In this document: piece after piece, positions 9,410 through 14,359 of the stretch
How positions within the stretch are numbered: the stretch's first letter is position 1
Layout of the letters: each line of letters opens with the position of its first letter
IMG/VR virus record: IMGVR_UViG_2563366951_000002
Coordinates: 1 to 45,042 of that record
From: a virus
Lineage: Duplodnaviria > Heunggongvirae > Uroviricota > Caudoviricetes
Strand: one strand, 5' to 3'
DNA: 45,042 bases
Position numbers and translations under genes: made by a program
The notes under the pieces: generated by a model
Seen by the model: only the letters and a program-made list of their open reading frames with translations
The model's database searches: none
Told to the model about the DNA's origin: nothing

Positions 9410-10069
9410 TTAACTAAATGTCTCTTCAGGCCACTGGCTGGCGATAACTTTCCCTACTACGGAACAGCTATCATTGCATGGGATCATTGGATATTGCGGG
9501 TTTAGTGGTTGTAGGAACACCTGACCGCTATCCCTGATCAGTTTCTTGAAGGTAAACTCCTCACCACCAAGTCTGGCTATGCAGAAATCACCTGGCTCAA
9601 CAGCCTGCTCAGGGTCAACGAGAATTAACATCCCGTCAGGAAAACTTGGCTTGGATCCTGTTGGTGCGGTCATGGAATTACCTTCAACTTCAAGCCAAAA
9701 CGCACAATCACTGGCTTTTTTGGTTGTGCTGACCCATCTCTCCGCATCACCTTTGGTAAAGGTTCTAAGCTCAGGCGAGAACATCCCGGCCTGAACATGA
9801 GAAAAAACAGGGTACTCATATTGTTTTTTTACGGGGGCAGATGAGTATTCGCCAACAGGTGAAAATGTACCGTCGTGGTTGAATGAGACGTTATCAATAC
9901 CAAGGTATTTAAACACCACACCAATCTCGTCAAGAGATGGATGACGAGATCCGCGCAACCAGTGACCAATTCCACCCTGCGTCATACCAAGCTCTTCAGC
10001 TAACTTCTCTTGAGTTATGCCGAGCTCTTTCATTCTGGATCTAGCCAGTTCATACCATTTCATTTTCAT
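9410..10069 (-). CDS. cI: CI-type prophage repressor (HTH domain plus S24/LexA-like peptidase domain, about 219 aa)
   Basis: Internal ATG at 10067-10069 with AAGGA upstream gives [37 protein letters not shown]... (HTH); C-terminal half has S24 self-cleavage domain character; divergent from cro; the track ORF extends to 10144. Confidence 0.8.
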
Positions 10070-10125
10070 ATCCTTATTATTACGCTCTGTACTAAAACCA
10101 TCCATGCACAAGATGTATTTTTTGT

Positions 10126-10154
10126 TTGCATTCCAAGAGTACATATCGTATTAT
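10126..10154 (+). promoter_or_regulatory. pR promoter with overlapping operator (OR)
   Basis: TTGCAT, 17-nt spacer, TATTAT; AGTACATATCGTATT overlaps the spacer and -10 and is near-identical to the pL operator. Confidence 0.6.
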
Positions 10155-10536: not shown

Positions 10537-10833
10537 ATGGAACAAACAAGTTACAGCAAACTATCACAGCGCGACGTTGATCGCGCTGAAACTGATTTAC
10601 TCATCAACCTGTCAACGCTTACCCAGCGCGGTCTGGCAAAGATGATTGGCTGTCATGAATCGAAGATAAGCAGAACGGACTGGAGATTTATTGCTTCGGT
10701 CTTGTGTGCTTTCGGAATGGCATCAGACATCAGTCCGATTAGCAGGGCTTTTAAGTATGCGCTTGATGAAATCACAAAGAAAAAATCCCCGGCCGCCACC
10801 GAGGATTTTAAGCAAATTGATATGCAATTCTGA
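10537..10833 (+). CDS. cII: CII-like transcriptional activator (98 aa)
   Basis: C-terminus ...KKKSPAATEDFKQIDMQF resembles lambda CII (...KKRPAATERSEQIQMEF); HTH-like segment; position between cro and the replication genes. Confidence 0.75.
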   Translation: MEQTSYSKLSQRDVDRAETDLLINLSTLTQRGLAKMIGCHESKISRTDWRFIASVLCAFGMASDISPISRAFKYALDEITKKKSPAATEDFKQIDMQF

Positions 10834-10865
10834 GGTAATTACTGGATCAATCCACAGGAGTAATT

Positions 10866-11027
10866 ATGACAAAACGTCGTAAGAAATACCAGGAAAAAGA
10901 AGAGATTCGACACCCTGATTCACCTGAGGGATTAGTGGTAGCCGCAGCAAATAACAGGGCGTTCGCAGAGCGCCTTGTTGGTGTTTACAGACTAGCCAAA
11001 GCAGGAGTGAAACATGGGCGTCGTTAA
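10866..11027 (+). CDS. Small basic hypothetical protein (53 aa), not in the ORF track
   Basis: ATG at 10866 with AGGAG 6 nt upstream; TAA at 11025-11027; translation MTKRRKKYQEKEEIRHPDSPEGLVVAAANNRAFAERLVGVYRLAKAGVKHGRR. Confidence 0.45.
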   Translation: MTKRRKKYQEKEEIRHPDSPEGLVVAAANNRAFAERLVGVYRLAKAGVKHGRR

Positions 11028-11076
11028 GTTAGCTGATTACAGGCATAACCCTGTACAACATCAGGAGGCATCCAGT

Positions 11077-11904
11077 ATGGGGTATGTCTCTATACACCGC
11101 CAGTTTATGGACAGCAGGCTCTATAAGGACTCTCAGGCAGTACATCTTTGGCTTCACTTAATCCTCAAGGCTAATCACGAATCTACTGTCGTCAATACGG
11201 ATATCGGTCCGATAACTGTTGATCGCGGTCAGATGATAACTGGACGCCCGTCGCTGGTCAGAGAAACATTCATCCCCGACAACAAAGTTCGGAGCTTATT
11301 ACGGACTTTTGAGTCGAAAGGGATGCTTAATATTTGCTCGATGGGGAAGAAATTTAGCCTGTTTACAATCGTTAAATATGACGATTTTCAGGCAAAAAAT
11401 TGTCCAACGGTTGTCCAACGGTTGTCCATCGCAAACACCAGTAATGGCGCGGCTCTCAGCGGAGATTGTCCAACGGTTGTCCAACGGTTGTCCATAAACA
11501 ATAATATAAATAATATCTCTAATACTGACGTATTAGAGAGTACCGCAGCAGACAAAAAGTCTGACAAGAAAAAACCTTCCGTTAGCTGTCAGGATGTTGT
11601 CGATGCTTACCACGAAATCCTTCCTGAAGCGCCAAAAATCCGCGCACTGAATGACAAGCGTAAAAACCAGATCCGAACGTTCTGGCGCAAAGCCGGAGTG
11701 ATAACCCGCCAGCTCGACGGGCATGGGTTCACGATGCAGGACTGGAGAAATTATTTGAGCTACGTAGGCGAAAATTGCCGATGGATGTTCGAAGAGCGCC
11801 CAAACCATCAGCGCGGAACCGTCTGGCACAAAAAGGGATTTGATTTCCTGCTTAACGATAATACCTACCTGAAAGTTCGTGAGGGTGAACACGATGACCG
11901 ATAA
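11077..11904 (+). CDS. Replication initiator, O-like, with origin iterons inside the gene
   Basis: ATG at 11077 with AGGAGG 8 nt upstream (track ORF starts at 11014); iteron repeats and an AT-rich block lie within the coding sequence as in lambda O; stop overlaps the helicase start. Confidence 0.7.
   Translation: MGYVSIHRQFMDSRLYKDSQAVHLWLHLILKANHESTVVNTDIGPITVDRGQMITGRPSLVRETFIPDNKVRSLLRTFESKGMLNICSMGKKFSLFTIVKYDDFQAKNCPTVVQRLSIANTSNGAALSGDCPTVVQRLSINNNINNISNTDVLESTAADKKSDKKKPSVSCQDVVDAYHEILPEAPKIRALNDKRKNQIRTFWRKAGVITRQLDGHGFTMQDWRNYLSYVGENCRWMFEERPNHQRGTVWHKKGFDFLLNDNTYLKVREGEHDDR
11400..11496. repeat. Origin iterons: two clusters of three 11-bp direct repeats
   Basis: TTGTCCAACGG at 11400, 11411, 11422 (third copy degenerate) and again at 11466, 11477, 11488; followed by AT-rich aacaataatataaataatatctctaatact. 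Confidence 0.75.
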
Positions 11905-14359
11905 TTTTTATGCGCCGCCCCATAGCATCGAGGCAGAGCAGGCGGTGATTGGTGGATTGCTTCTGGATGATGACAGCAGTGAGCGCGTCCAGAAAGTTCT
12001 GGCGATGCTGAAGCCTGATTCATTTTACTGCCGACCACACAAAATCCTTTTCGAAGAAATAACCAGAATGCACCGTGAGCAAAAGCCAGTAGATGGCCTG
12101 ACGCTTTTCGATGAACTGGAGCGTAAATCGTTAACGGCGTCTGTTGGCGGTTTTGCTTATATCACTGAGATCGCAAAGAACACGCCAAGCGCCGCAAACA
12201 TCGTTGCCTATGCAATGCAGGTTCGCGAAACCGCAATGGAACGCTACGCCATCAACCGCATGACTGAAGCGACGGAATTGCTCTATTCCCGCAACGGAAT
12301 GACTGCGACGCAGAAGTACGAAGCTATTCAGGCGATTTTCACGCAACTGACAGACCATGCAAAAACCGGATCGCGTCGCGGCCTTCGCTCATTTGGTGAG
12401 GTTATGGAAGACTGGGTTAGCGACCTTGAGAAACGATTTGACCCATCAGGCGAACAACGGGGAATGAGCACAGGGATCCCATCGCTGGACAGGATGCTGT
12501 CACCGAAAGGTCTGGTGAAAGGCTCTCTGTTTGTCATTGGCGCTCGCCCTAAGATGGGGAAAGCGCAACCGCTTAATTCACGCATTTTGCTTGCTGATGG
12601 TTCATGGACAACATTTCGTGACGTATGTGTTGGAGATTCCCTAGCATCAGTGGATGGACAACCATCATTCGTGTCTGGAGTTTTTCCTCAAGGGGAGCGA
12701 GATATTTACCGAGTTACGTTCTCTGACGGAAGAACCGTTGATTGCGCGGATGATCATTTGTGGGAGATTCATAGTAACCGTATTACCGGTGGCGTTGATG
12801 TTGTAGACACCTGCCGCCTACGGGACATGATGGAATGCGTTCGCTATCAAAGCCGCATTCATGTTCCTGGTATTAGCGGTGACTTCGGATTGCCTGTTGA
12901 TTTAGGGATTAGCCCATGGCTGTTAGGTGCGTTACTTGGCGATGGAAATCTTGCAGGTACGCCACGAATCAGCATGACGGAACCATACATCATTGAGCGA
13001 GTAAGATCTGAAGTGGGTGACGATATTGAAGTCAGGCATGTTTCTGGCTGCGATTACTCCCTATCTCACAAGTTTAGCCGCAAATTATCTCTTACGCGGG
13101 TTATGCAACGGCTTGGTATCTACGGCCGGATGTCAGAGATTAAAATTATCCCGGATATTATTTTTTCTGCTGATAAGCAAACTCGTATTGATGTTCTATG
13201 CGGATTACTTGAAACCGATGGTTGGGTTGAAGGAAATAATGCCCTGCGCTTTAGCTCGGCAAGCAAGTTCCTGTCAGATGGTGTAAAGCGGCTGGTGCAT
13301 TCTCTTGGTGGCGTGTGTCGTATGACAACCAAACAGGAGCCGAAATTCAGTTATAAGGGAGAAATGCGCAAAGGTATGGATGCCCATATTTGCGCAATCA
13401 GGTTGCCTGATGAGGTTCTATCACACATAAAATCTCCACGCCTGAAGCAAAAATTCACTGCAAAACGCATCAAAACAAGTGCGCCTGTTATCACGTCGGT
13501 TGAGTATATTGGACGTGAAGAGTGCATTTGCATCATGGTATCCCACGAGAGACATTTGTATGCAACTGACGGATACATTCTAACTCACAACACCACGCTA
13601 TACAGCCAGATGGCAATCAACTGCGCAGTGCATGAGAAAAAGCCCGCTCTGATGTTCAGCCTTGAAATGCCAGGTGACCAGATACTGGAAAAACTGGTGG
13701 GACAGAAGTCAGGTGTTAACCCGAATATTTTTTACCTTCCGGCGACAAATGACGCTGATGACAGCTATCAGGGTGATTACGATGGTGACTTCAACAGGGC
13801 GATCGAAACAGCCAATCGCTTGAGTGAAATCGACCTGCTTTACATCGACGACACGCCGGGATTATCTCTGGCTCAAATCGTCAGCGAAAGCCGTCGAATC
13901 AAGCGAGAAAAAGGATGTGTTGGCATGATTCTGGTCGATTACCTGACACTAATGACTGCTGAGAAGGCCGATCGCAACGACCTTGCTTACGGCATGATCA
14001 CCAAAGGATTGAAGAACCTTGCCAAAGAGCTTGATTGCGTTGTTGTGCTTCTGACACAGCTTAACCGCGCACTGGAAAGCCGAACCAATAAACGCCCATT
14101 ACCAAGTGACTCACGAGATACAGGGCAGATTGAACAGGATTGCGATTATTGGGTTGGGATCCATCGGGAAGGTGCTTTTGATGACAGCGTTCCTCCTGGT
14201 GAAACCGAACTAATCCTTCGTCTCAATCGTCATGGCAATACCGGCACGGTGTATTGCATTCAGGCAAATGGCGCTATTTATGACACAGACCAACAGTCTG
14301 CTGAAATGCGCCGACGTGAACGCGAGGAACCGCAGTCCAAGAAGAAAGGAGGATTCTGA
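11894..14359 (+). CDS. DnaB-family replicative helicase interrupted by an in-frame intein
   Basis: ATG at 11894 (track ORF starts at GTG 11879); N-terminal DnaB-like domain; Walker A GARPKMGK, then 343-aa insert, then TTLYSQMAIN...SLEMP...LVDYL...SDSRDTGQIEQDCD helicase motifs. Confidence 0.8.
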   Translation: MTDNFYAPPHSIEAEQAVIGGLLLDDDSSERVQKVLAMLKPDSFYCRPHKILFEEITRMHREQKPVDGLTLFDELERKSLTASVGGFAYITEIAKNTPSAANIVAYAMQVRETAMERYAINRMTEATELLYSRNGMTATQKYEAIQAIFTQLTDHAKTGSRRGLRSFGEVMEDWVSDLEKRFDPSGEQRGMSTGIPSLDRMLSPKGLVKGSLFVIGARPKMGKAQPLNSRILLADGSWTTFRDVCVGDSLASVDGQPSFVSGVFPQGERDIYRVTFSDGRTVDCADDHLWEIHSNRITGGVDVVDTCRLRDMMECVRYQSRIHVPGISGDFGLPVDLGISPWLLGALLGDGNLAGTPRISMTEPYIIERVRSEVGDDIEVRHVSGCDYSLSHKFSRKLSLTRVMQRLGIYGRMSEIKIIPDIIFSADKQTRIDVLCGLLETDGWVEGNNALRFSSASKFLSDGVKRLVHSLGGVCRMTTKQEPKFSYKGEMRKGMDAHICAIRLPDEVLSHIKSPRLKQKFTAKRIKTSAPVITSVEYIGREECICIMVSHERHLYATDGYILTHNTTLYSQMAINCAVHEKKPALMFSLEMPGDQILEKLVGQKSGVNPNIFYLPATNDADDSYQGDYDGDFNRAIETANRLSEIDLLYIDDTPGLSLAQIVSESRRIKREKGCVGMILVDYLTLMTAEKADRNDLAYGMITKGLKNLAKELDCVVVLLTQLNRALESRTNKRPLPSDSRDTGQIEQDCDYWVGIHREGAFDDSVPPGETELILRLNRHGNTGTVYCIQANGAIYDTDQQSAEMRRREREEPQSKKKGGF
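12563..13591 (+). mobile_element. Intein (343 aa) with LAGLIDADG homing-endonuclease domain, inserted in the helicase P-loop
   Basis: Insert begins AQPLNSRILLADG and ends YILTHN, followed by Thr; two LAGLIDADG motifs (LLGALLGDGNL, LCGLLETDGW); removing it restores GARPKMGK-TTLYSQ. Confidence 0.75.

Follow-up and report, generated by a model that had tools for sequence, protein, structure and literature searches.

The window, i.e. the whole stretch of 45,042 nucleotides that was analysed, is a lambdoid/P22-like prophage. The locus studied here comprises an initiator gene, the repeats that it contains and a replicative helicase gene. The features were as follows.

9410–10144, minus strand: CI-type repressor.
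10537–10833, plus strand: CII-type activator.
10866–11027, plus strand: conserved ORF of 53 aa.
11014–11904, plus strand: initiator gene, 296 aa, the equivalent of Sf6 gene 43, of 'O' of HK620 and HK106, and of gene 18 of phages L and ST64T.
11080–11388, plus strand: coding region of the N-terminal winged-helix domain (aa 23–125), the presumed iteron-binding module.
Aa 126–188 of the initiator: predicted disordered linker (AlphaFold2 pLDDT < 50).
11400–11432, plus strand: iteron cluster I, three head-to-tail 11-bp units, 11400–11410 TTGTCCAACGG, 11411–11421 TTGTCCAACGG and 11422–11432 TTGTCCATCGC.
11433–11465, plus strand: spacer between the clusters, 33 bp (3 x 11) of unique sequence.
11466–11498, plus strand: iteron cluster II, three 11-bp units, 11466–11476 TTGTCCAACGG, 11477–11487 TTGTCCAACGG and 11488–11498 TTGTCCATAAA.
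11495–11515, no strand assigned: AT-rich block TAAACAATAATATAAATAATA, 21 bp with 5% GC, the presumed DNA-unwinding element.
11516–11539, no strand assigned: perfect palindrome TCTCTAATAC-TGAC-GTATTAGAGA with 10-bp arms and a 4-nt centre.
11581–11892, plus strand: coding region of the C-terminal domain (aa 190–293, pLDDT 76–89), the presumed helicase-recruiting module.
11894–14359, plus strand: DnaB-type replicative helicase gene of the P22 gp12/Sf6 gp44 type (Pfam DnaB and DnaB_C).

The helicase gene starts 11 nt ahead of the initiator stop codon, i.e. the two genes overlap, and no loader ORF of the G39P type was present between them at the window locus. The helicase is interrupted by an intein of 343 aa (nt 12563–13591) inserted exactly between K223 and T224, while its exteins were 98–99% identical to Sf6 gp44. 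The initiator gene itself was 98–99% identical at the DNA level to its counterparts in HK106, mEp234, IME10, Sf6, HK75 and others (98.9% in the case of Sf6 gene 43). For gene 18 of the Salmonella phages of the ST64T/L group the identity was 84%.

The array was evident from direct reading and from Tandem Repeats Finder, which reported two arrays of period 11, and nucleotides 11399–11429 recur exactly as 11465–11495, a duplication of 31 nt. An earlier note on this DNA had described two clusters of three tandem 11-bp copies, which is borne out by these data. The separation of the clusters had been given there as 35 bp; we measured 33 bp, so that the start-to-start distance is 66 bp or six units. 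The units are asymmetric and in strict tandem; they do not have the length of about 18 to 20 bp and the internal dyad symmetry of lambda-type iterons. The array starts three codons past the end of the N-domain and the whole putative origin maps to aa 129–176, entirely within linker-coding DNA. As had also been noted before, the peptide CPTVVQRLSI is translated twice, at aa 130–139 and 152–161 of ORF 11014–11904.

Four exact copies of TTGTCCAACGG were found in the 45-kb window compared to 0.06 expected, a number that was reached in none of 100 shuffles. The core TTGTCCA occurs 13 times in the window, with six of these copies inside the 99 bp of the array. Degenerate copies with up to three mismatches were not enriched in the window (93 matches vs. 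112 expected); thus the significance is confined to the local array. Unit 3, TTGTCCATCGC, is a single-base change specific to the window, as all listed close relatives carry TTGTCCAACGC at this position. Separately, the sequence GTTTATGGACA at 11103–11113, which falls in the conserved HRQFMDS motif of the N-domain coding region, equals unit 6 and one further base read on the opposite strand. At a rough estimate of about 0.1 such chance matches per kb this inverted copy is probably coincidental.

Downstream of the repeats the last unit of cluster II merges into the AT-rich block, and the sequence between cluster II and the palindrome reads CAATAATATAAATAATA. The GC-content of 11495–11515 is in the lowest 0.01% of all 21-nt stretches of the window, which has 49.8% GC overall, and the AT-rich segment that had been claimed 3' of the repeats is therefore real. 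The palindrome that follows at 11516–11539 had gone unmentioned in the earlier note. As single-stranded DNA it has a predicted folding energy of -7.5 kcal/mol with a z of -4.4.

We then compared the locus with homologous loci drawn from phage records, viral contigs and a collection with one genome per species, covering many genera of Enterobacterales. The scan of viral contigs yielded mostly near-identical copies, and the diversity came from the one-genome-per-species collection. A layout of 3 x 11, 33 and 3 x 11 bp was present in 52 of 54 divergent loci; the other two, L110 and L111, have a 12-bp unit in otherwise the same 3+3 arrangement. The sequence of the spacer varied among the relatives except for its first bases, AAAC. 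An AT-rich block and a perfect palindrome followed in all 54 loci. The 22 nt 3' of the last iteron core had a mean GC-content of 14% (52 loci). The palindromes, at the equivalent position and with arms of 9 to 11 bp, came in 22 versions of stem and centre, while shuffled controls reached arms of 9 bp in 9 out of 5400 trials. All of the 22 versions being perfect, both arms must change together, i.e. they covary. As far as can be judged from this comparison the palindrome appears to be a conserved part of the origin.

The iteron cores of the divergent loci fell into at least 10 classes with N-domain identities down to about 40%. The class TGTCCAAC comprises the window, Sf6, L, Cronobacter ENT47670 and others; TGTCCAGC was found in CobraSix and in Enterobacter prophages, GTGCCAAC in prophages of Klebsiella, Yersinia, Pantoea and Erwinia, and TTACCAGC in HK022. 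The minor classes AATCCAA, GGCCAA, TGTCCG and GTGCCAT were represented by a few loci each. CCA at unit positions 4 to 6 is common to nearly all classes with L112 as the exception. Among more distant relatives, CGACACCCTACC occurs in the 3+3 arrangement on a Glaciecola contig. Tandem 12-mers, about nine of them, were seen at a Prevotella locus, and four to five 11-mers on an Elusimicrobiales contig. Natural alleles contain one, two or three clusters, differ in steps of 66 bp and encode proteins of 274, 296 and 318 aa, respectively (e.g. loci L064 and L062).

The elements may also be read as transcription signals, namely the palindrome and the AT-run as an intrinsic terminator of the minus strand and the iterons as weak minus-strand promoters. 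A consensus scan indeed picked up a weak minus-strand terminator-like site at 11539–11516 and promoter-like matches (9 of 12) at 11494–11465 and 11428–11399, and the record of phage L has software-predicted terminators at the equivalent place. Yet, the stem contains only three G-C pairs and is followed by the tail TATTATTTAT without a T-run. The minimal promoter matches require the TGTCCA core, which is absent from the classes TTACCAGC and GTGCCAAC with the same layout, and the number of promoter-like sites, 4 compared to 1.6 ± 1.4 expected, is unremarkable. Accordingly, we give this explanation hardly any credence.

The conservation of the repeats was considered at the levels of DNA and protein. 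The three units of a cluster fall in three reading frames (CPT-, -VQR and LSI). As 11 is not a multiple of three, protein-level selection cannot account for the 11-bp period. Among 51 distinct arrays belonging to the TGTCCA-class, unit positions 2 to 7 were invariant including third codon positions, while positions 1, 8, 10 and 11 were variable whatever the codon phase, second codon positions included. The selection of these 51 arrays required TGTCCA in units 1, 4 and 6, so that units 2, 3 and 5 constitute the unbiased test; core positions 2 to 7 were invariant in these three units alone as well. In these alignments the constraint acts on the DNA, not on the protein.

The opposite view, that the repeated CPTVVQRLSI peptide is under selection because it serves the initiator, e.g. 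in metal binding or oligomerisation, is very unlikely in the light of these data. The peptide is duplicated exactly and Pro131 and Pro153 were invariant in an alignment of eight sequences. Yet, apart from the three reading frames, the variation tracks the position in the 11-mer and not that in the codon, and the encoded peptide is wholly different between classes, e.g. VPADYQQITT in HK022. Furthermore, pLDDT is below 50 over the peptide and variants with one and three copies are common.

We likewise consider it highly improbable that the repeats are a functionless by-product of slippage or duplication in tolerant linker DNA that is kept uniform by gene conversion. Such an origin would be in line with the disorder predicted for the encoded linker and with the natural gain and loss of whole 66-bp units, and tandem repeats are prone to concerted evolution, where slippage and gene conversion homogenise copies without any function. 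On the other hand, count, spacing and position of the 3+33+3 arrangement persist over at least 10 different cores and down to N-domain identities of about 40%, the core is invariant at synonymous sites, and the AT-rich block and the covarying perfect palindrome are always next to the repeats. In addition, a neutral repeat would not hold a spacer of unique sequence at a fixed length of 33 bp.

The AlphaFold2 model of the initiator, which is based on a shallow alignment of 22 sequences and has a mean pLDDT of 66, predicts an N-domain with a helix-turn-helix followed by a beta-hairpin wing, a fold similar to those of solved winged-helix proteins. Foldseek matches of the model were all weaker than E 0.001. 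Pfam and NCBIfam contained no usable family for the initiator, the sole match being the sub-threshold DUF7376, and a sequence search of the PDB gave no match. The N-domain was, however, recovered by BLASTP against SPP1 G38P (aa 2–112) with an E of 8e-13 and 28% identity over about 110 aa, and relatives found by tblastn were proteins of SPP1 and of staphylococcal and Lactobacillus phages. Matches to PHROGs were 345 (E 6e-84), 2514 (E 1.5e-23) and 186 (E 1.8e-15), labelled 'DnaD-like helicase loader' or 'replication initiation O-like'.

A direct homology to lambda O was considered and rejected: BLASTP against lambda O came back empty, and PF04492 (Phage_rep_O) matched neither the initiator nor the N-domain alone when E values of up to 1 were allowed. 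For comparison, PF04492 recognised lambda O with an E of 6e-36 and P22 gp18 with 7e-38. Thus the term O-like, which the earlier note had used for this gene, holds for its position and role but not for similarity to lambda O or membership in PF04492, neither of which was detected.

Iteron-core identity correlated with N-domain identity (Spearman 0.56) and not with C-domain identity (0.08); the pairs compared are not phylogenetically independent and, because the iterons adjoin the N-domain coding region, plain linkage could explain part of this co-variation. N-domain and C-domain identities were mutually uncorrelated. An instructive case is O of HK022, where the C-domain is 99% identical to that of the window initiator, while the N-domain is 47% identical and the iterons are different. 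The reverse is seen in Dryocola L118 with an N-domain of 75% identity, the same iterons and an unrelated C-domain.

A C-domain of the lambda O-type replaces that of the window-type in Eho59, L118, L131–133 and L140. That of the Erwinia phage Eho59 shares 70% identity with lambda O 178–299, and the next gene there is of the lambda P-type in place of a helicase. In the sequences compared the C-domain thus is a separate module, which is exchanged independently of the N-domain and the iterons. The data fit a division of labour in which N-domain and iterons would set the specificity of the origin and the C-domain would match the helicase or loader partner. Mutual information analysis pointed to class-associated residues in the helix-turn-helix (83, 88, 89, 97 and 101) and in the wing (106–108 and 111), with many other residues scoring too. 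We did not accept these as specificity-determining residues since the signal is confounded by phylogeny; they are merely a lead.

The array could truly be bound, by the initiator or by some other protein, and yet have a role other than initiation, such as autoregulation, titration of the initiator, replication control by pairing of arrays or service as a preferred junction for the exchange of modules among phages. The similarity between the HK022 and Sf6-type genes breaks at the AT-rich block and the palindrome, and the lack of correlation between N- and C-domain identities makes the site a recombination junction in practice. Moreover, the copy number of clusters varies, and G38P of SPP1 also binds oriR, where a non-initiating role has been proposed (PMC6316719). 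Still, none of these roles conflicts with origin function, and known iteron systems have them on top of it. The extreme AT-rich block and the layout similar to those of lambda, P22 and SPP1 point to unwinding, and in the rest of the 45-kb window Tandem Repeats Finder reported nothing comparable to this iteron-like array. A role restricted to such functions is therefore unlikely in our view.

The preferred reading is that of an origin, and as such the element is an ordinary known feature, already annotated or published as a putative origin in Sf6, HK620 and L. The GenBank record of Sf6 (AF547987) has a rep_origin at 28385..28480 with the note 'putative; repeat region reminiscent of the phage lambda origin; similar to phage HK620', which covers precisely the repeats equivalent to the array of the window. 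A 'putative origin of replication' is likewise marked in phage L (MW013502), and the six 11-bp repeats of this phage were named as the likely origin by Zaworski et al. 2021 (PMC8022706). The Sf6 annotation and the phage L paper predate our analysis, so that the interpretation as an origin is the standard one, and the window with its near-identical copy of an annotated putative origin counts as already known. In the literature searched, which mostly did not extend to the older genome papers on HK620, Sf6, HK022 and P22, we found no footprint, gel-shift or origin-cloning experiments for the Sf6/HK620/L-type origin.

The window shares with Sf6 and L the six imprecise 11-bp units (TGTCCAACGG core), the AT-rich block and the palindrome. 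Its repeats are located inside the gene of a homologue of Sf6 gp43 and L gp18 with a DnaB-type helicase gene next to it, as is typical of the Sf6/HK620/L-type. It differs from these phages in unit 3 as described above and in the helicase intein, which they lack.

The lambda origin has the same overall plan. It is located inside the initiator gene straight after the N-domain, in linker-coding DNA, with iterons, AT-rich block and palindrome in the same order. The lambda palindrome has 12-bp arms and a 4-nt centre and occupies the same relative place, and lambda O likewise consists of two domains, a specificity-setting N-domain and an exchangeable C-domain. In contrast, the four annotated iterons of lambda are 18 bp long, show internal dyad symmetry and are irregularly spaced, while the window has 3+3 asymmetric 11-bp units; the claim that iteron sequence and number depart from those of lambda was thus correct. 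The partners also differ: lambda employs P, a loader that takes over the DnaB of the host, and the window a phage-encoded DnaB-type helicase.

P22 resembles the window in the succession of a cII-type gene, a small ORF, the initiator, a DnaB-type helicase and nin genes. Its gene 18 carries an annotated rep_origin, placed past the N-domain as is the array of the window. The similarity of P22 gp18 to the window initiator is confined to the C-domain and weak (25% identity, E 2e-4), while its N-domain, unlike that of the window, is of the lambda O-type PF04492. P22 has repeats of about 20 bp whose sequences bear no relation to those of the window (PMC8022706). The initiators of lambda, P22 and L are each stated to bind different iterons inside their own coding regions (PMC8022706). 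According to older genetics cited in the same paper the replication regions of L and P22 are exchangeable only as whole units.

Among relatives with biochemical proof the SPP1 oriL/G38P system is the closest. G38P binds the direct repeats of oriL within gene 38 beside an AT-rich unwinding element, and this system has been reconstituted in vitro (PMC6316719). The SPP1 repeats (L008 1259–1346) fall inside the cloned oriL fragment 35801–36151 (PMC5615212). As in the window, direct repeats and AT-rich element of oriL reside in the organiser's own gene past the N-domain, the N-domains are homologous and the replicative helicase belongs to the DnaB family. Unlike the window, SPP1 has the separate loader G39P, a second origin, oriR, and a Phg_2220_C C-domain, and its repeats differ in sequence and spacing. 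Iteron origins of theta-plasmids, e.g. that of the staphylococcal multiresistance plasmid RepA, bear a resemblance at the level of the fold alone. Plasmid iterons typically measure about 17 to 22 bp, and the origin of a plasmid is as a rule found outside of the rep gene.

Taken together, the array very probably is the theta-type replication origin of this lambdoid/P22-like prophage and lies within the gene whose product, the initiator, recognises it. The comparative layout, the joint variation of N-domain and iteron class and the constraint at the DNA-level all support what the earlier note had proposed, an origin inside its initiator gene with an iteron specificity of its own.

We infer the following sequence of events. 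The winged-helix N-domain would bind the asymmetric 11-bp units as head-to-tail monomers. As each helical turn would carry one unit, the three protomers of a cluster would all sit on the same face of the DNA, and the two clusters, 66 bp apart, would build a larger nucleoprotein complex. This complex would then strain and open the adjoining 21-bp block with its 5% GC. The C-domain of the initiator would recruit the phage's own DnaB-type helicase, the product of the next gene. The palindrome beside the AT-rich block would be a part of the origin as in lambda and may extrude as a hairpin upon opening.

The comparison may extend beyond the individual origin. We are evenly divided on whether these loci represent a coherent and widespread class of origins that has not yet been described, characterised by a G38P-like winged-helix N-domain, phased 11-bp and sometimes 12-bp units in a 3+33+3 arrangement with an invariant CCA, an AT-rich block, a covarying palindrome, at least 10 iteron specificities each paired with its own variant of the N-domain, and versions with one to three clusters. 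If this were true, the pairs of domain and iteron would provide a ready-made recognition code for the N-domain. In that case the palindrome would be a conserved origin element, possibly the site at which a loader-independent helicase enters.

For the window the analysis confirms a prophage with a replication module of the standard Sf6/HK620/L-type and locates the most likely site of its origin. The result adds strong support, from comparison of sequences only, to a prediction that has been standing since the annotation of Sf6 with its reference to HK620. The addition to it is modest and consists of the phased units, about 10 classes tied to the N-domain, the covarying palindrome and the alleles with one to three clusters. 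Finally, the specificity of the origin bears on cross-activation and interference in the replication of co-resident prophages.

At positions 11431-11445 of the window and at the equivalent place in homologous loci, the bases that follow the third 11-bp unit of the putative origin were kept across several iteron classes, i.e. types of repeat sequence. They read GCAAAC, usually followed by a C/G-rich run and AGTAA, while the remainder of the 33-bp spacer varied among the homologous loci. An A/T tract lay ahead of the first unit in all iteron classes.

The number of clusters was variable in nature. Beside the common two-cluster initiator of 296 aa there were a three-cluster allele, longer by 66 bp and encoding 318 aa (proteins P0001-P0022), and a one-cluster allele, shorter by 66 bp and encoding 274 aa (P0032-P0043, except P0041 with 292 aa). 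Example loci of the cluster-number alleles are:

L062, 1501-2454
L064, 1501-2322

The length of the unit also differed, being 12 bp instead of 11 bp in some of the homologous loci:

L110 and L111 (Silvania, Leclercia), about 1850-2000 in each, arrays of 12-bp units
L134 (Glaciecola), about 1850-2000, array of 12-bp units
L138 (Prevotella), about 1850-2000, array of 12-bp units

Units of the TTACCAACCAAA type and CGACACCCTACC occurred in a 3+3 arrangement, and the Prevotella locus carried about nine AAATGAGCAAAC units in tandem. With a unit length of 12 bp the repeat doubles as an in-frame peptide repeat.

A further match to the iterons was present in inverted orientation. The last iteron together with one extra base (TGTCCATAAAC, 11489-11499) has a perfect reverse-complementary copy, GTTTATGGACA, at 11103-11113. 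This copy is located in the coding region of the N-domain, at the HRQFMDS motif and 375 bp upstream of TGTCCATAAAC, and probably arose by chance. Ahead of the initiator gene, the conserved oop/pO region was recognized at 10782-10874 with two features:

10809-10782, minus strand, predicted strong terminator
10842-10874, 33-bp box ACTGGATCAATCCACAGGAGTAATTATGACAAA

The latter matches a box reported to be conserved across lambdoid phages (PMC3349717). It overlaps the 5' start of a 53-aa ORF (10866-11027), which belongs to PHROG 1331 with the function label "unknown".

The DnaB-type helicase gene on the other side of the origin is interrupted:

11894-14359, DnaB-type helicase gene
12563-13591, intein of 343 aa inside this gene

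The exact insertion point is the Walker-A loop (GARPKMGK / AQPLNS...GYILTHN / TTLYSQ), and the exteins are 98-99% identical to gp44, the helicase of phage Sf6. Hint and LAGLIDADG signatures were found in the intein, the splicing domain of which is similar to gp41-1 and to mycobacterial DnaB inteins. With Ala as its first residue and W, C and T at positions characteristic of class 3 inteins, it may belong to this class. The insert was present in none of 50,697 phage records. Among 5,426 complete genomes of E. coli, 18 carried it, and there the match falls on two DnaB-domain features that bear different names.

Finally, there were chimeric initiators, in which a G38P-like N-domain and 11-bp iterons are fused to a different C-domain:

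L007, 838-1788, chimeric initiator of Erwinia phage Eho59

The C-domain of the Eho59 initiator is 70% identical to residues 178-299 of lambda O, and the gene downstream is of the lambda-P type in place of a DnaB-type helicase. By reading of the sequences, the initiators of the prophage loci L118, L131-133 and L140, which are chimeric as well, have the same kind of C-domain. The chimeric initiators illustrate an exchange of modules at the putative origin.
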